Shown here: positions 8,012 through 14,914 of the stretch, piece after piece | Layout: each line of letters opens with the position of its first letter | How positions within the stretch are numbered: the stretch's first letter is position 1 | Source of the DNA: Burkholderiales bacterium | Lineage (GTDB): Bacteria; Pseudomonadota; Gammaproteobacteria; Burkholderiales; Burkholderiaceae_C | NCBI GenBank assembly: GCA_016000265.1 | Contig: JAECRL010000013.1 | Span: 7,387 to 71,386 of the forward strand | Direction of reading: 5' to 3' | DNA: 64,000 bases | Program-made: the position numbers and the translations under genes | Notes under the pieces: model-generated | What the model was told of the DNA's origin: nothing | The model's database searches: none | What the model saw: the letters and a program-made list of their open reading frames with translations, nothing else

Positions 8012-8779
8012 ATGCAAACCCGCTCGACCCTCTCCCTGCTGGCCCTGGCCACCAGCCTGACCTGCTCCTTCGCCTGGGCACACGATGGTGCCCACAAGGC
8101 GGCCCACCAGGGCGGCATCCAGGCGCCCGCCGTCAAGAAGACGGGCAAACCGCCCTTCGACATCATCCACACCAAGGTCACCACCGAGGGCAACACCGCC
8201 ATCTTCCACATGGCCGTCTCCGGCAAGGCCGGCCTGAGCCGCCCGACCAAGTCCGGCAAACTCGCCGGCAGCCAGGTCTTCTCGTACGTGTGGCCCACCT
8301 CGCTGGACCCATCGACCGTGGGCTTCGAGCCCAAGGCCGGCATCCTGGCCTTCGCGGTGACCTCTCACCCCGACTTCGACGACACCCCGCTGTTCGACGA
8401 AAACGGCGACGGCAACGCCACCAACGACGGCAACGTGTGGCACTCGCACTGGGTCGTGCTGCAACCCGATGACGCCTGCGGCAAAGGTGCGCTCAAGGTC
8501 GTCGACATCCCCGAAGGCGCCAAGCCCAAGCTGCCCAAGACCTGGCCGGGCCTGCCCATCCTGATCGACAGCCCGGGCTGGTCGCCCAAGATCAGTCAGG
8601 ACACGGTCGAGGTGCGCGTGCCCTTCGACGACATCGGCGCCGTCAACGCCGGCAGCTTCGACGGCGTGACCGCCGCGCTGCGCGTCAACGCCAGCGTGCA
8701 CAACCCGCTGCTGTGCGTCGTCAACGTCTTCAAGGTCGCCTCCGGCAACCTGTCCCTGCCGGGCAAGGTCAATCAGTGA
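8012..8779 (+). CDS. Secreted hypothetical protein, probable metal-binding
   Basis: Signal peptide ending AWA then HDGAH; DFDDTPLFDENGDG acidic loop and WHSHWVVL motif; AAGGA RBS. Confidence 0.75.
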   Translation: MQTRSTLSLLALATSLTCSFAWAHDGAHKAAHQGGIQAPAVKKTGKPPFDIIHTKVTTEGNTAIFHMAVSGKAGLSRPTKSGKLAGSQVFSYVWPTSLDPSTVGFEPKAGILAFAVTSHPDFDDTPLFDENGDGNATNDGNVWHSHWVVLQPDDACGKGALKVVDIPEGAKPKLPKTWPGLPILIDSPGWSPKISQDTVEVRVPFDDIGAVNAGSFDGVTAALRVNASVHNPLLCVVNVFKVASGNLSLPGKVNQ

Positions 8780-9391: not shown

Positions 9392-9862
9392 ATGAACCTC
9401 CAGATCGACGCCAGCGAATGGCTCAACACCCAGGCCCCCTTGTCGCTGCAGGCGCTGCGCGGCTCGGTGGTCGTGGTCACGGCCTTCCAGATGCTGTGCC
9501 GGGGCTGCGCTCAAACCAGCCTGCCGCAGGCCCGCAGCCTGCACCTGGCTTTCGCTCGGCCAGACCTGGTCGTCATCGGGCTGCACAGCGTGTTCGAACA
9601 CCACGAGGCCATGACCCCCACGGCCTTGCGGGCCTTCGTTCACGAGTACCAGCTGCCGTTTCCCATCGCCATCGACCGCCAGGTGCCCGGGGCCACGCTG
9701 CCCGCCACCATGCGCGCGTGGGACCTGCAGGGCACCCCGAGCATGCTGGTCTTCGACCGCCAGGGTGACTTGCAGGCCCACCACTTCGGGCACATGGACG
9801 ACCTGCGACTGGGCGCGCTGCTGGGTCAATTGATCGCCCAACCCACCCCCGAGACACCATGA
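9392..9862 (+). CDS. Redoxin/TlpA-like thioredoxin-fold protein
   Basis: LRGSVVVVTAFQMLCRGC (CxxC), VIGLHSVFEHH, LQGTPS. Confidence 0.8.
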   Translation: MNLQIDASEWLNTQAPLSLQALRGSVVVVTAFQMLCRGCAQTSLPQARSLHLAFARPDLVVIGLHSVFEHHEAMTPTALRAFVHEYQLPFPIAIDRQVPGATLPATMRAWDLQGTPSMLVFDRQGDLQAHHFGHMDDLRLGALLGQLIAQPTPETP

Positions 9863-10144: not shown

Positions 10145-10172
10145 GGCCGCCACATGCGGCCATTTTTGTTTT
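10145..10172 (+). terminator. Rho-independent terminator
   Basis: GGCCGC-CACAT-GCGGCC hairpin followed by ATTTTTGTTTT. Confidence 0.7.
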
Positions 10173-10272
10173 CAGATTCGTTTTCACAGCGCCTTCACAC
10201 CCGATGCGCCATTCAGACCGCGTGGGTTTCAAACGGTTTCAAACACCCCCTTCCGCCCCCCTAACATGCCAA

Positions 10273-10301
10273 TTGACAGCACCCGACTCGGCCCATAAAG
10301 T
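10273..10301 (+). promoter_or_regulatory. Sigma70 promoter of the propeller/diiron operon
   Basis: TTGACA (10273-10278), 17 nt, TAAAGT (10296-10301). Confidence 0.7.
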
Positions 10302-10314
10302 TTCGAGTCGAAAC
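10300..10314. promoter_or_regulatory. Palindromic operator overlapping the -10/+1 region
   Basis: Perfect inverted repeat GTTTCGA-G-TCGAAAC; related GTTTCAAAC direct repeats at 10226 and 10236. Confidence 0.55.
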
Positions 10315-10357: not shown

Positions 10358-11629
10358 ATGAAATCGAGAAACGCCCGAATCCTCGGCGCCATGGCCCTCG
10401 CGTTCGGCAGCCTCTCCGCTCAGGCGCACGTGGTCAGCGCGGTCAACATGATGCATTGCGACCTCATCTTGATCAACGCCGACACCGACGAAATGGTCAT
10501 GACCCCGCTGATGGACCTGCTCGGCTGGCCCGACGCCGTCTGCCAGCACAGCTGGATCCTGCCCAATGAATCCAAGGTGTTCATCTCCACCGACGCCAAC
10601 CAGGGCGTGGGCACCAAGGTGGCCGCCCTGACGATCAAAAGCATCGACTGGGCCAACAAGAAGGTCGACCTCTCGCTGGACGCCTTGATCCCCATGGGCC
10701 AGGCCGCCACCCTGTCGTCCATCCCCGTGCCGACGCAGACCAGCCCCCTGCAGCCCATCCCGCCCGTGCCCTCGGCCTGGTTCCCGAAATACTCGCAGAT
10801 TCACGGCCCCACCCTGCTGCCCGGAACCGATTTCTCCTACCTCACCGGCTACACCGACTCCAATATCTACGTCATCAACAACAAAACCAACAAACTGGTT
10901 ACCAAGCAGAGTTTCGGAAACGCCAGCCGGCAAATGCATGGCATTTATTTCAATTCCATCGGTTCTTTGGGCCTGAGCGCGCCCTACCAGTTTGACCTCA
11001 ACCAGGTCAACGTCTACCGGCCCAACCCGCGCACGGGCGTGCTGACCCAGTTGGGCGCCATCCGCCTGGGCTCGCGCGCCGAGTACGCCGCCTTCTCGCA
11101 CTTCGTGACCTGGGTGGGCAACCGCTACGCCTACATCGGCACCATGCAGTCCGACAAGACCAGCCTGACGCCGTCTGGCGCCAAGGTGATCGGCCCCAGC
11201 GTGTGGCGCCTGGACACCGCGACCCTGACGGCCACCCGCGTGCTCGGCCCCACGCCGCACGTCAACGGCACGGGCGTCTACCGCCCGGCGTCGGACGTGG
11301 CGGTGGTGGGCAACACCCTGATCGTGGCCGAAGAAGACACCCTGGACGGCGCCGTCGGCCCCGGCTACATCGCCTTCTTCGACATCGCCGACCTGAACCG
11401 CCCCCGCCTCATCAAGCGACTGGTGCCCGGCGTGGACCTGCCGGCGGACTTCAAGGTCGCCCACGTCATCAGCGTGCCCGACGACCAGGTCTTCGCCTAC
11501 GTGTCGAGCTACCACAGCAACCACCTGATCAAGCTGGAGATCGCCACGCAAAAGGTGCTGAAGGTCTACTCCGCCGCGGACGGCCTGGACATGCCGCACG
11601 GTGAGTTCATCTCGGGCAACCTGCGCTGA
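10358..11629 (+). CDS. Secreted beta-propeller protein with recurring His motifs, function unknown
   Basis: Sec signal ending AQA, mature N-terminus His24; blade-like repeats QH64SWILP, IH149GPTLLP, MH194GIYFN, SH248FVTW, SD313VAVV, AH369VISV, PH414GEFI; AGGA RBS. Confidence 0.75.
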   Translation: MKSRNARILGAMALAFGSLSAQAHVVSAVNMMHCDLILINADTDEMVMTPLMDLLGWPDAVCQHSWILPNESKVFISTDANQGVGTKVAALTIKSIDWANKKVDLSLDALIPMGQAATLSSIPVPTQTSPLQPIPPVPSAWFPKYSQIHGPTLLPGTDFSYLTGYTDSNIYVINNKTNKLVTKQSFGNASRQMHGIYFNSIGSLGLSAPYQFDLNQVNVYRPNPRTGVLTQLGAIRLGSRAEYAAFSHFVTWVGNRYAYIGTMQSDKTSLTPSGAKVIGPSVWRLDTATLTATRVLGPTPHVNGTGVYRPASDVAVVGNTLIVAEEDTLDGAVGPGYIAFFDIADLNRPRLIKRLVPGVDLPADFKVAHVISVPDDQVFAYVSSYHSNHLIKLEIATQKVLKVYSAADGLDMPHGEFISGNLR

Positions 11630-11707: not shown

Positions 11708-12694
11708 ATGCAAACGCAAGCCACCTCCCCGAGCGCCGCGCTCGCAGCCGCAGCCGCTGTGACCCCCGACGCCTCCCGCTCCATGGCCCTGCTGGGCCGC
11801 ATCGCCAAAGGCTGGGGCCAGCGCGCCCAGGTCAAGCAGCGCGAACTCGACCTGGCCTACGACGCCAGCCGCCCCGACTTCCTCGAGAGCCTGCTGCCCT
11901 TCCACCTGCACCCGCTCTACGAGTCGCTCGACGAGCGCACCAAGGGCCGCATCCTGTCTTGCGGCTGGCTCATCTACAACGAGAAGACGGTGGCCATCGA
12001 GCTCGACATCGTCAGCCCCGCCTGCCACGACATCCTCTACGAGAACGTGCCCGGCCTGGACACCGAGTGGGCCAAGGAGATCGTCTGCGAGACCCTGGTC
12101 GACGAGGCCTATCACCTGCTGCTGGTCAAGAACGCCAACCGCCTGACGCGCGAGGTGCGCGACCTCTCCCACATCCGCATCCCGCAGTTCGCGCTGGTGC
12201 GCCAGATGCAGGAAGAGCAAGCCCGCCACACGCCCGCCTGGGCGCCGATGCTGGTGCGCCTGAGCACCGCCGTGGTCTCCGAGATCTTCATCAGCGACTA
12301 CCTGCACCAGCTGTCGGAAGAGGAGTCGATCCAGCCGCTCAACCGCGCCACCGTGGCCGCGCACCGCCACGACGAGCTGGCGCACTCCAAGATCTTCGCC
12401 GAGCTCACACGCGCCTTCTTCCAGGCGCTGAGCAGCTCACAGAAGTCCTTCTTCGCCGAGACCCTGCCCAAGTCCATCCACTGGTTCGCCGACAAGGAGC
12501 TCGACCTGTGGCTGGACGTGCTCAAGCAACTGGGCGTGGGCCAGGCCGGCACGATCATCGAAGACAGCCGCCAGATCAACCAGGTCGCGCTGGAGCGGGT
12601 GGACTACTCCGGCGTCATCCAGTTGGCCGAAGACGTCGGCATCCTGGACACGCGCGAAGGCCGCAGTGCGTTCAGCCACGCCGGCCTGATCTGA
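11708..12694 (+). CDS. AurF/CmlI/DnfA-family non-heme diiron N-oxygenase
   Basis: E98, D132-E133-x2-H136, E192, H219-x2-D-E223-x2-H226: same spacing as the AurF ligand set E101/E136/H139/E196/H223/E227/H230, including the extra His. Confidence 0.9.
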   Translation: MQTQATSPSAALAAAAAVTPDASRSMALLGRIAKGWGQRAQVKQRELDLAYDASRPDFLESLLPFHLHPLYESLDERTKGRILSCGWLIYNEKTVAIELDIVSPACHDILYENVPGLDTEWAKEIVCETLVDEAYHLLLVKNANRLTREVRDLSHIRIPQFALVRQMQEEQARHTPAWAPMLVRLSTAVVSEIFISDYLHQLSEEESIQPLNRATVAAHRHDELAHSKIFAELTRAFFQALSSSQKSFFAETLPKSIHWFADKELDLWLDVLKQLGVGQAGTIIEDSRQINQVALERVDYSGVIQLAEDVGILDTREGRSAFSHAGLI

Positions 12695-12703
12695 GGAGCG
12701 CAC

Positions 12704-12868
12704 GTGAGCTGGGAATGCCTGATCTGCAACTGGCGCTACGACCCCGTCACCGGCGCGCCGGCGGCGGGCATCGCAGGGGGCACCCCCTTCGACGAGCTGC
12801 CGCACGACTGGACCTGCCCCGACTGCGGGGCCGCCAAAGAAGATTTTTTTGAAGTGGAGGCCCCATGA
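12704..12868 (+). CDS. Rubredoxin (54 aa, missing from ORF track)
   Basis: GTG start after GAGGAG RBS; MSWECLICNWRYDPVTGAPAAGIAGGTPFDELPHDWTCPDCGAAKEDFFEVEAP*; CxxC...WxCPxCG; TGA overlaps the next ATG. Confidence 0.95.
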   Translation: MSWECLICNWRYDPVTGAPAAGIAGGTPFDELPHDWTCPDCGAAKEDFFEVEAP

Positions 12869-13575
12869 GCCCGAAAAAAACACAGGTGGTGGCCATCCAG
12901 CACCTGGCATTCGAAGACCTCGGCTCGTTCGAGGCCGTGCTGCGCGAGCAGGACATGGACATCACCCACCTGCAAGCGGGGGTCGACGACGTGAGCCAGG
13001 CGCTGGCGCAGGCCGACATCGCCGTGGTGCTGGGCGGCCCGATCGGGGTCTACGAAACCGAGGCCTACCCCTTCTTGCTCGACGAGATCGAAGCCCTGCG
13101 CCAGCGCATGCTCGCGCGCAAGCCCACGCTGGGCATCTGCCTGGGCTCGCAGCTGATGGCGCAGGCCTTTGGCGGGCGCGTGTACCCGGGCGGCCAGAAA
13201 GAGATCGGCTGGGGGGAGCTGACGCTGTCGGACAGCGGGCGGCGCTCGCCCCTGCAGCACCTGCAAGGCGCCGCGGTGCTGCACTGGCACGGCGACACCT
13301 TCGAGTTGCCGCCGGACGCCGAGCTGCTGGCCTCGTCGCCGCTGTACGCCAACCAGGCCTTTCGCATCGGCAGCAACCTGCTGGCCCTGCAATGCCACCC
13401 CGAGGCGCAGGCGCGCACCTTCGAGCGCTGGCTGATCGGCCACGCCGGCGAGCTGGCCTCGGCGCGCCTGGACGTGCCCACCTTGCGGGCGCAGGCTCAG
13501 CGCCTGGGCCCCACGCTGGAGCGCGCCAGCCAGGCCATGCTGCGCGAGTGGCTCGCCGACCTGGTCTGGGCCTGA
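12865..13575 (+). CDS. Stand-alone class I glutamine amidotransferase (DnfC-like)
   Basis: QHLAFEDLG, VLGGPIGVY, LGICLGSQ (Cys nucleophile), LHWHGDTF, LQCHPE (His-x-Glu). Confidence 0.9.
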   Translation: MSPKKTQVVAIQHLAFEDLGSFEAVLREQDMDITHLQAGVDDVSQALAQADIAVVLGGPIGVYETEAYPFLLDEIEALRQRMLARKPTLGICLGSQLMAQAFGGRVYPGGQKEIGWGELTLSDSGRRSPLQHLQGAAVLHWHGDTFELPPDAELLASSPLYANQAFRIGSNLLALQCHPEAQARTFERWLIGHAGELASARLDVPTLRAQAQRLGPTLERASQAMLREWLADLVWA

Positions 13576-14280
13576 ATGCCAGCCACCTCGCCCGTCGTCC
13601 ACCTCGGTGTGGTCGAGCGCGTGCTGTGCGGCACGCCCCGGCCCCTGCCCGGGCGCGGCCGCAGCTCGCTGGGGCGCACCGAGGTGGACGCCCTCGACGT
13701 CGGGCTGCTGGGCGTGGCGGGCGACGACTTCGGTGACCGCACCCACCACGGCGGCAGCGAGAAGGCCCTGCACCAGTACCCCGCCGAGCACCTGCCCCGG
13801 TGGCAGCAGGCGTTGCCCGATGACGCCGCGCGCTTCCAGGTCGGCGCCTTTGGCGAGAACCTCTCCAGCCGCGGCCTCGACGAGCACGGCCTGTGCATCG
13901 GCGACACGCTGCGCATCGGCTCGGCCACCCTGCAGGTCTCCCAAGGCAGGCAACCCTGCTGGAAACTGGGGGCGTACTTCGGCCGCGACGACCTGGCCAG
14001 CCTGGCCCAGGCCAGCGGGCGCCTGGGCTGGTACCTGCGCACGCTGGAGCCCGGTCGCATCCGCGCCGCCGACGCCATCGAGTTGCTGGCGCGCCCCAAC
14101 CCGGACTGGAGCGTGGACCGCGTGCACCGCGCCGTCTTCGAGCGGCGGCACACCCCGGCCGAGCTGCAGGCGCTGGCCGAGCTGCCCGGCTTGAGCCCGC
14201 GCTGGCGCGCGCTGTTTGCGCGCCGACTGGCCTCACCCCACGAGGAGGAGCCCACCGCCCGGCTGACCGGCCCGCCATAA
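13576..14280 (+). CDS. MOSC domain protein, YiiM-like
   Basis: HHGGSEKALHQY, FGENL, SQGRQPCWKL, GWYLRTLEPG and C-terminal 3-alpha region. Confidence 0.88.
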   Translation: MPATSPVVHLGVVERVLCGTPRPLPGRGRSSLGRTEVDALDVGLLGVAGDDFGDRTHHGGSEKALHQYPAEHLPRWQQALPDDAARFQVGAFGENLSSRGLDEHGLCIGDTLRIGSATLQVSQGRQPCWKLGAYFGRDDLASLAQASGRLGWYLRTLEPGRIRAADAIELLARPNPDWSVDRVHRAVFERRHTPAELQALAELPGLSPRWRALFARRLASPHEEEPTARLTGPP

Positions 14281-14290
14281 TCACCGCACG

Positions 14291-14914
14291 ATGAGCAAGA
14301 AGACACCTGAATGGGAGAGCCTGACGCACCGCCACGCCCCCGTCGGGTCCGAGCAGGCGTTCGAAGCCACGGCGCTCAGCCTCGGTGAGCTGTTCCTGTA
14401 CGAAACGCACCGCTTCGCCACCCGGCATCGCCTCGACGTGGTGCACCTGAGGGCGTTGAGCTTCCTGCAGCAGGCCAACAAGTACAGCGACACCTCGGTG
14501 GCGCTGGTTGACCACCTGGGGCTGACCAAGGGCACCGTCTCCAAGTCGATCGCGCTGCTGGCCCAGCGCGGCCTGCTGCGCAAGGTGCCCGACCTGGTGG
14601 ACCGACGCCGCCTCCACCTGCAGCTCACCGACGCGGGCCAGGAGACCGCCCGGGCGTTCGCCGAGCACCTGCAGTGGTCGCGCCTGACGGCCTTGCTGAC
14701 GCCCGAGCAGCGTGCGGCGGTGGACGGGGCGCTCAAGACCATCCTGCGCACCAGCCAGCAACTCAACGAGCGGCGCACCTTCGGCCTGTGCCGGACCTGT
14801 CGCCGCTTCCGCCCCGAAGGCGACGGCGGCTTCTGCCTGCTCACCCAGGAGGCGCTGACGCCTCACCAGACCCACCAGCGCTGCCGGGAGCACGAGCCGC
14901 CCCCCGCGCGCTGA
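14291..14914 (+). CDS. MarR family regulator with C-terminal Cys/His cluster
   Basis: LGLTKGTVSKSIALLAQRGLL...DRRRLHLQLT winged HTH; C-terminal FGLCRTCRRF...FCLL...RCREH. Confidence 0.85.
   Translation: MSKKTPEWESLTHRHAPVGSEQAFEATALSLGELFLYETHRFATRHRLDVVHLRALSFLQQANKYSDTSVALVDHLGLTKGTVSKSIALLAQRGLLRKVPDLVDRRRLHLQLTDAGQETARAFAEHLQWSRLTALLTPEQRAAVDGALKTILRTSQQLNERRTFGLCRTCRRFRPEGDGGFCLLTQEALTPHQTHQRCREHEPPPAR

Follow-up and report, generated by a model that had tools for sequence, protein, structure and literature searches.

A seven-bladed propeller protein with a ring of conserved histidines, encoded beside dnf genes, as a putative tunnel-metal protein

Analysis of a 64,000-nucleotide stretch of DNA from a Burkholderiales bacterium (contig JAECRL010000013.1; this whole stretch is hereafter referred to as the window) revealed an operon that resembles the dnf clusters of dirammox (direct ammonia oxidation) bacteria and opens with a gene for a secreted beta-propeller protein. 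Six near-invariant histidines recur in this propeller, its gene is repeatedly found next to dnfA in distantly related bacteria, and both observations suggest that it may hold a metal in its central tunnel and act on a small nitrogen-oxygen compound. Hydroxylamine and nitric oxide (NO) are the branch points deciding whether nitrite, nitrous oxide (N2O) or N2 is produced from nitrification. The fate of hydroxylamine in heterotrophic dirammox bacteria is unclear, the role of DnfA in N2 formation is disputed, and the accessory enzymes that shape the release of NO and N2O by ammonia oxidisers are likewise unclear. The propeller gene neighbours those that form hydroxylamine in three phyla, and a copper chaperone gene in Nitrosomonas and Nitrosospira, which makes its product a concrete candidate for laboratory testing.

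The propeller gene, its operon and its predicted fold

The operon comprises the following features, given with their window coordinates:

10145..10161, + strand: terminator-like hairpin with a T-run, after the upstream DUF2024 gene (from the sequence)
10273..10301, + strand: sigma-70-like promoter, TTGACA-17 nt-TAAAGT, 57 nucleotides (nt) before the start codon (from the sequence)
10300..10314: perfect palindrome GTTTCGAGTCGAAAC, with arms GTTTCGA/TCGAAAC around a G, overlapping the -10 element and the likely transcription start (from the sequence)
10358..11629, + strand: propeller gene, encoding a seven-bladed, His-ring protein of 423 amino acids (translation of the open reading frame, without stops)
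10358..10426, + strand: Sec-type signal peptide, residues 1-23, ending in AQA (sequence pattern judged by eye)
11708..12694, + strand: dnfA-like diiron N-oxygenase (AurF family), starting 78 nt after the propeller gene (PF11583, E 1.6e-46)
12704..12868, + strand: rubredoxin of 54 amino acids with a GTG start, CxxC ... CPDC (motifs read directly)
12865..13575, + strand: dnfC-like class-I glutamine amidotransferase (NF005458, 323 bits, above the cut-off)
13576..14280, + strand: MOSC/YiiM-like protein, a relative of 6-hydroxyaminopurine reductase (family match)
14291..14914, + strand: MarR-family regulator, the last gene of the unit (family match)

The upstream hairpin separates the propeller operon from the preceding genes. 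The -35 and -10 elements and the palindrome are kept in three related loci (L001-L003) whose spacer has otherwise diverged; the palindrome, shared by four loci, is probably an operator, judging from its sequence and position, and is perhaps bound by the MarR regulator of the operon. A perfect tandem direct repeat (two copies of GGTTTCAAAC, 10225-10244), partly kept in L001, lies upstream of the promoter and is possibly a second regulator site. Within the operon, the rubredoxin is encoded between dnfA and the amidotransferase gene, at the place of DnfB, which is absent from the window cluster, and it probably substitutes for this electron shuttle. The genes flanking the operon include hmp, nsrR, two AraC/cupin regulators, AhpD-like and peroxiredoxin-like genes, nirBD and a NIT-ANTAR regulator.

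The open reading frame of the propeller has a GC content at third codon positions (GC3) of 0.92, similar to that of the adjacent genes. Its N-terminus, MKSRNARILGAMALAFGSLSAQA followed by HVV, shows by eye the layout of a Sec signal peptide, with an n-region, an h-region and an AxA pattern, and residues 1-21 are disordered in the AlphaFold model, with a predicted local distance difference test score (pLDDT) below 50. The window propeller is thus predicted to be exported via Sec.

Pfam, NCBIfam and PDB sequence searches with the window propeller returned no real match, a blaEBR match (E 0.04) and several antibody matches being discarded as noise. No Pfam family was matched at E up to 1 by the window protein, or at E up to 0.01 by NE0510, its Nitrosomonas europaea relative. 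A word-indexed search of 5.8 billion proteins identified 68 relatives, HMMER applied exhaustively to 1.84 billion cluster representatives 93, and a scan restricted to a single genome for each prokaryotic species 125. None bears a functional name. Some carry automatic labels, either 'DNA-binding beta-propeller fold protein YncE' (JGI) or 'methanethiol oxidase' (UniRef, for Q82WZ0 and a Paraherbaspirillum protein), and the SBP56/methanethiol oxidase profile PF05694 matches neither the window propeller nor NE0510. Judging from these searches, the propeller represents a small, unnamed and uncharacterised family.

The AlphaFold2 model, built from a 39-sequence alignment (pLDDT 92.8; predicted template-modelling score, pTM, 0.89), contains 28 strands arranged in seven four-strand blades (residue numbers):

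Blade 1: strands 61-67, 73-79, 87-97 and 102-112
Blade 2: strands 148-153, 159-164, 170-174 and 179-184
Blade 3: strands 193-198, 205-209, 216-222 and 229-236
Blade 4: strands 247-253, 257-262, 281-286 and 291-296
Blade 5: strands 311-317, 320-325, 337-342 and 350-355
Blade 6: strands 370-372, 379-384, 389-394 and 399-404
Blade 7: strand 413-418, with the N-terminal strands 25-30, 35-40 and 46-50

The ring is closed in the model by one C-terminal and three N-terminal strands. Several statements of the original prediction, which was made from this DNA without database searches, are borne out at this stage. The frame is open and a signal peptide pattern with cleavage after AQA is present (by eye); the terminator, promoter and operator-like palindrome that precede the propeller gene place it first in a dnf-like operon; the protein is modelled as a beta-propeller, and no named family can be assigned to it.

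Residues of particular interest are encoded as follows:

10547..10549, + strand: His64, blade 1, start of the innermost strand (aligns with active-site His437 of thiocyanate dehydrogenase, TcDH)
10802..10804, + strand: His149, blade 2 (alignment, AlphaFold)
10937..10939, + strand: His194, blade 3 (alignment, AlphaFold)
11099..11101, + strand: His248, blade 4 (alignment, AlphaFold)
11291..11296, + strand: Ser312-Asp313, blade 5, at the site held by His in the other blades (alignment)
11330..11332, + strand: Glu325, VAEED motif, second strand of blade 5 (alignment)
11462..11464, + strand: His369, blade 6 (alignment, AlphaFold)
11597..11599, + strand: His414, blade 7, C-terminal strand closing the ring (alignment, AlphaFold)

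Conservation was counted in an alignment of 171 family sequences. H64 is present in 169 (the two others being gaps), H149 in 170, H194 in all 171, and H248, H369 and H414 in 167 each, most exceptions again corresponding to gaps. D313 is found in 148 sequences (W or Y in 19), S312 in 168 and E325 in 170, and relatives at 21-26% identity retain all six His as well as S312 and E325. D286, Q264, Y210 and W252 are also invariant in the family. The propeller has 11 His (24, 33, 64, 149, 194, 248, 301, 369, 386, 389 and 414), and the five outside this conserved set are poorly conserved, with His24 in 39 (23%) and His33 in 12 of the 171 sequences. The conserved His of blades 1-4, 6 and 7, and S312-D313 of blade 5, are located at or just before the beginning of the first strand of each blade; by a rough estimate, the chance of six conserved His landing in about 28 of 400 positions is ca. 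1e-7. Based on the blade topology and on the alignment to TcDH and YVTN blades, the His-bearing strand is predicted to be the innermost, so that the seven residues would ring one mouth of the central tunnel. Glu325 is a candidate ligand or catalytic base.

The recurrence of His at equivalent blade positions, noticed in the original prediction, is therefore a property of the family, since these residues are near-invariant and occupy the same strand of six blades. The same prediction regarded the exposed N-terminal His24 as a putative copper ligand of the type found in CopC or lytic polysaccharide monooxygenases. This part has to be abandoned: His24 is not conserved, which argues against a histidine brace, and the predicted mature N-termini of close relatives begin with S-H, G-H, N-H or HEGETH. 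The NMMHC motif highlighted at this end is confined to one clade.

The only Cys of the window propeller are Cys34 (10457-10459) and Cys62 (10541-10543), the latter two residues ahead of His64. They co-occur (23 and 24 of 171 relatives, respectively) in the subclade of Burkholderiales-type periplasmic members, and could form a clade-specific disulfide or an additional ligand pair.

Gene neighbourhoods across genomes

A total of 80 propeller loci were surveyed, with linkage defined as dnfA/amidotransferase genes within 10 kb. Both dnfA and a dnfC-type amidotransferase gene were found within this distance in 31 of the 80 loci, dnfA being usually the next gene on the same strand. The dnf-linked hosts belong to the Proteobacteria, the Actinobacteria and the Cyanobacteria. 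They comprise Aquabacterium-like and other Burkholderiales, Pseudoduganella, a Nitrosomonadales metagenome-assembled genome (MAG), Motilimonas, Colwellia, Paraglaciecola, Fluctibacter and Endobugula, about 17 Streptomyces, Actinoplanes and Actinophytocola, and two filamentous cyanobacteria. Among 31 related genomes, the propeller gene occurs in only two, the host of the window (G000) and G157, and dnfA occurs only in the same two, adjacent to it. Judged by this adjacency and by joint presence or absence, the propeller is an accessory gene of dirammox-type (dnf) clusters. In a maximum-likelihood tree, the dnf-linked sequences fall in at least two deep clades, in addition to the cyanobacteria, and this paraphyly makes the dnf linkage look old.

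DnfA (diiron), DnfB (FNR-like, 2Fe-2S) and DnfC (amidotransferase) are cytoplasmic and produce hydroxylamine from ammonium/glutamine, the steps that follow being disputed (PMC9478400, PMC11440038). The propeller is distinct from all three, and the window cluster has a rubredoxin instead of DnfB. A 2026 survey described dnf clusters of groups II-IV and of Streptomyces with an unexplained neighbour designated 'hypO1' (PMC13753816). The propeller gene is located directly upstream of dnfA/dnfC, is found in genera of these groups and in Streptomyces, and may correspond to 'hypO1'. No family member was found among the named matches in Alcaligenes, Delftia or Pseudomonas (group I). Pseudoduganella rivuli FT92W, of which the locus examined here (L038) carries the propeller, does not accumulate hydroxylamine, yet its dnfABC genes cause accumulation in E. 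coli. The same behaviour was reported for Shewanella sp. AS16, a group IV strain outside the set examined here (PMC13753816).

Two variations of the dnf-linked loci were observed. In the actinobacterial loci (L005-L017, L022, L024, L025 and L054), a gene for an FNR-like DnfB is located between dnfA and the amidotransferase gene. In the cyanobacterial homologs (L019, L027 and L029; Microcoleaceae, Okeania), no stop interrupts the frame over more than 230 residues ahead of the propeller, and a larger secreted protein may thus have the propeller as its C-terminal domain.

A second genomic context is provided by ammonia oxidisers, whose propellers form a monophyletic clade in the maximum-likelihood tree (support 100/100). 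SCO1/SenC proteins are copper chaperones. In 23 of 28 loci outside the dnf-linked set, the propeller gene belongs to an operon with genes for a SCO1/SenC protein (PF02630, E 2e-29 to 4e-30) and for a secreted protein of 209 amino acids, and the third gene was detected by tblastn in 38 loci. The hosts of this operon are Nitrosomonas, Nitrosospira, Nitrosovibrio, one Myxococcota genome and two Burkholderiales-type MAGs. In N. europaea, it is organised as follows:

Locus L059, 6621-9336: NE0510 (propeller) - NE0509 (SCO1/SenC) - NE0508 (209 amino acids), the last two genes overlapping

NE0508 has no match in Pfam or NCBIfam, and no similarity to a secreted protein of 255 amino acids encoded in the window (see below). 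The SCO1/SenC gene in this operon is the best evidence for copper. NE0510 and Nmul_A2237 are fairly abundant in published proteomes, being detected at 0.105 and 0.200 as compared with 0.39 and 0.25 for elongation factor G (EF-G), in a supplementary table of orthologs lacking in N. ureae (PMC5960693). NE0508-NE0510 are transcribed, at levels unchanged between ammonia- and oxygen-limited growth (PMC6967387 supplement). In the literature searched, these genes were found in supplementary tables only, no main text naming them, and searches for a propeller as a candidate NO oxidoreductase retrieved only unrelated uses of the word 'propeller'.

Metal, compartment and possible substrate

With respect to the metal site, the closest known design is that of TcDH and of the N2O reductase NosZ, and the propeller can be assigned to neither. 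TcDH is a seven-bladed propeller with three Cu in its tunnel (PMC9456337) and the active-site residues K103, H135, H136, Q156, H206, E288, D314, H381, H437, H482, H528, D529 and R544 (PMC6504805). TcDH (PDB 5F75, 5OEX and 6UWE) and the propeller are similar in size, and the set formed here by H64, H149, H194, H248, D313, H369, H414 and E325 shares the TcDH composition of six His blades, one Asp blade and one Glu. Both lack a cupredoxin domain and, by analogy, the propeller may be a periplasmic enzyme oxidising a small molecule, as TcDH is. The full family profile matched TcDH chains at E 0.04-0.45, in a single stretch limited to residues 56-103, which gives no homology over the whole propeller. 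A sub-profile of blade 1 aligned PGWPGxxPxQHTxxxPDGKKxYVT...W with the TcDH blade ESPDWRGAYPNTFHMVFTPDAKKIYVT...W at E 6e-4 to 2e-2, values that are optimistic because this sub-region was picked after the first match had been seen. Allowing for the shift of 81 residues between the 5OEX and 5F75 chains, the His aligned to H64 is His437 of TcDH. No relatives emerged when metagenomes were scanned with the TcDH fragment of 47 residues, used as an alignment. TcDH also differs from the propeller in having H136, K103 and R544, in its export by Tat rather than Sec (the N-terminus MKSRNARILG... of the propeller has no RR motif) and in its neighbours, which are cop/cus and sulfur genes instead of dnf or SCO1. 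The resemblance to TcDH is thus one of design, suggested by analogy.

NosZ is also a seven-bladed propeller, in which His residues line a copper cluster (CuZ) at the centre. Yet the window protein ends at blade 7 (residue 423), without the C-terminal CuA cupredoxin domain of NosZ, has six His instead of seven, and is encoded with no nosDFYL genes nearby. The Pfam nos_propeller family has no match in the window protein or its host genome; such a match was observed in 4 of the 30 related genomes searched. The comparison of structures proposed in the original prediction gave no NosZ among its top 50 matches. Foldseek searches against the PDB recovered only generic propellers with template-modelling scores (TM-scores) of 0.61 or less, including a YVTN protein, the hydrazine synthase beta subunit, lactonases, NirN/NirF, the methylamine dehydrogenase heavy chain and AztD.

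As a whole, these data are best explained by a family of propellers with a metal, probably copper, in the tunnel, acting on hydroxylamine or NO, a reading to which we assign a probability of about 0.45. Its parts differ in strength. A metal site in the tunnel is likely, copper is somewhat favoured as the metal, and hydroxylamine, NO or a closely related N-O species can be put forward as the substrate only tentatively, from gene context. The residues at the tunnel mouth would coordinate a small cluster of metal, most probably made up of two or three copper ions, a number proposed because TcDH has the same ligand composition. This cluster would oxidise or couple a small diffusible N-O compound released by the cytoplasmic DnfA-rubredoxin-DnfC system, most likely hydroxylamine, with NO or HNO as alternatives. 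The acceptor may be O2, or the reaction may be a redox-neutral coupling or dismutation, as suggested by the absence of any cytochrome or cupredoxin as a conserved neighbour in the loci examined. The propeller would thereby remove or convert a toxic intermediate, while the surrounding Hmp/NsrR, MOSC, peroxiredoxin-like and NirBD proteins would handle collateral damage. In the sister clade of Nitrosomonas and Nitrosospira (NE0510-type), it would do the same, in an accessory capacity, with periplasmic hydroxylamine or NO derived from ammonia oxidation. A small diffusible substrate would be compatible with both cytoplasmic and periplasmic members.

A more ambitious version, in which the family is a new multicopper class (TcDH/CuZ-like) oxidising or coupling hydroxylamine and/or NO, and accounts both for the undefined step that follows hydroxylamine in the dirammox-type heterotrophic nitrifiers of groups II-IV and for an abundant, hitherto overlooked accessory activity on N-oxides in about 40% of betaproteobacterial ammonia oxidisers, appears doubtful. 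Under this version, the NO and N2O output of ammonia oxidisers would be affected. On the main reading already, the propeller may be an unrecognised enzyme of the nitrogen cycle, and its family would be the third with a His-lined tunnel metal cluster, after NosZ and TcDH.

Besides the optimistic E-values of the blade-1 sub-profile, several observations weigh against the reading of the propeller as a copper enzyme of N-O metabolism. Only one blade is detectably similar to TcDH, at a marginal E of ca. 1e-3, and the Asp blade is placed differently relative to this aligned blade, the two not being colinear when H64 is set on H437. Neither TcDH nor NosZ was among the top 50 Foldseek matches, and hhalign with three NosZ sequences from related genomes gave a probability of 0.55% and an E of 0.11; the sole aligned stretch, which is not significant, sets H369 and H414 against the His of 'NPHGVN' and 'GPLHT', two motifs of NosZ. 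No copper-handling gene is found beside the propeller copy of the window. Actinobacterial members begin with MHILTGVNMM, preceded by unconserved sequence and with no signal peptide, and are predicted to be cytoplasmic; elsewhere in the family a signal peptide or lipobox is present, except that the cyanobacterial members have a long extension at the N-terminus. A periplasmic location is therefore not required for the function and, since copper enzymes are rarely cytoplasmic, copper is less certain across the family and may not be the metal throughout. Of 151 Nitrosomonadaceae genomes sampled, 49 have the propeller, 88 have amoA and 34 have both; the propeller is thus present in about 39% of amoA-positive genomes (34/88) and missing from many complete, single-contig ones. 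This incomplete distribution points to an accessory rather than universal function in ammonia oxidisers, and the propeller was rejected as their universal 'missing NO oxidoreductase', most complete genomes being devoid of it. Finally, the physiological hint provided by P. rivuli is weak, because Delftia, in which no family member was found here, likewise fails to accumulate hydroxylamine (PMC13753816).

The periplasmic location proposed in the original prediction consequently holds for Gram-negative members and not for those of the Actinobacteria. In the same way, its suggestion of a metalloenzyme, possibly multi-copper, gains from the TcDH-like ligand composition and the SCO1/SenC operon, while the signal-less actinobacterial forms weaken the case for an obligatory copper.

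The nearest alternative, which we consider unlikely, is a propeller holding non-haem iron or another metal in its tunnel and serving as an oxygenase of an organic N-oxygenated intermediate of DnfA/DnfC, such as an oxime, a hydroxamate or an N-hydroxy amino acid, rather than of free hydroxylamine. Its model is found in carotenoid-cleavage oxygenases and RPE65, seven-bladed propellers with an axial Fe(II) bound by four inner-strand His and with acidic second-shell residues, an axial metal design that is comparable and that the His cluster and acidic second shell of the family would also fit. Fe(II) is far more usual than copper in the cytoplasm, where the actinobacterial members are expected to reside, none of the dnf-linked copies adjoins a copper gene, and the true substrate and product of DnfA are unresolved in the literature (PMC11440038). 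However, a ring of six His and one Asp exceeds the needs of a single iron, no RPE65 match was found in Pfam and no carotenoid oxygenase among the top 50 Foldseek matches, the single weak sequence link is to a copper enzyme, and the SCO1/SenC gene in the operon of ammonia oxidisers points to copper.

Even less probable is a non-catalytic role as a metal chaperone, buffer or sensor, or as a scaffold for another periplasmic protein. Consistent with such a role, the zinc-delivering propeller AztD is among the Foldseek matches (6cmk_B, E 6e-9), no redox partner is encoded nearby, and the abundance in ammonia oxidisers is one that a buffer might also reach. On the other hand, the TM-score to AztD is just 0.38, DnfA is excluded as a target in Gram-negatives since it occupies another compartment, and the invariant polar residues E325, D286, D327, Q264, Y210 and R354, together with a TSLTP loop, resemble those of an active site.

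An equally catalytic but nitrogen-independent function, in which a copper propeller oxidises thiocyanate, methanethiol or another sulfur compound and the dnf linkage reflects a shared stress island, ranks slightly lower still. TcDH is indeed the nearest sequence link, two relatives are named 'methanethiol oxidase' in UniRef, and the operon lies amid thiol- and peroxide-repair genes. Yet no SBP56 match was obtained in Pfam at E up to 1, dnfA is adjacent on the same strand across three phyla and is gained and lost together with the propeller, and the remaining hosts are ammonia oxidisers.

Lastly, an ordinary, metal-free YVTN/YncE-type propeller, with His serving for folding or ligand binding, is very improbable: the top Foldseek match is a YVTN propeller, JGI applies YncE names, and the family shares its blade repeat and overall fold with YVTN, YncE and lactonase-type proteins (1L0Q, 8BLW and 3U4Y), its profile matching YVTN 1l0q at E 1.9e-4 and YncE chains at E 2e-4, but these matches cover the generic repeat only, define a fold-level class that is uninformative on function, and involve proteins without a His ring (TM-scores of 0.61 or less), in which the Gly of 'PxG' opening the innermost strand A (1L0Q alignment) stands in place of His, whereas the six His are 98-100% conserved down to 21% identity, which propeller folding does not require.

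Other proteins encoded near the propeller

Two further genes of the window deserve mention. At 9392-9862 (+ strand) lies a gene for a peroxiredoxin/ResA-like protein of thioredoxin fold, which contains a CRGC motif and lacks a signal peptide; its relatives adjoin the propeller in Pseudoduganella. DnfC of Motilimonas and Shewanella carries a fused peroxiredoxin domain (PMC13753816), and this fusion, together with the missing signal peptide, places the 9392-9862 protein with the cytoplasmic Dnf part. An AhpC-like CxxC protein was ruled out as a SCO-type copper chaperone for want of a signal peptide.

The second gene, at 8012-8779 (+ strand), encodes the secreted 255-amino-acid protein mentioned above, with a signal peptide ending in AWA followed by HDGAHKAAH. 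It looks metal-binding, with the invariant motifs HPDFDDTP and WHSHW, and had no match in Pfam, NCBIfam or the PDB; its AlphaFold model (pLDDT 61) retrieved nothing with Foldseek. Although encoded near the propeller in 16 loci, it was rejected as a dedicated partner or chaperone, since its family is far larger than that of the propeller, with more than 6,400 homologs, many of them at 75-85% identity across Proteobacteria.

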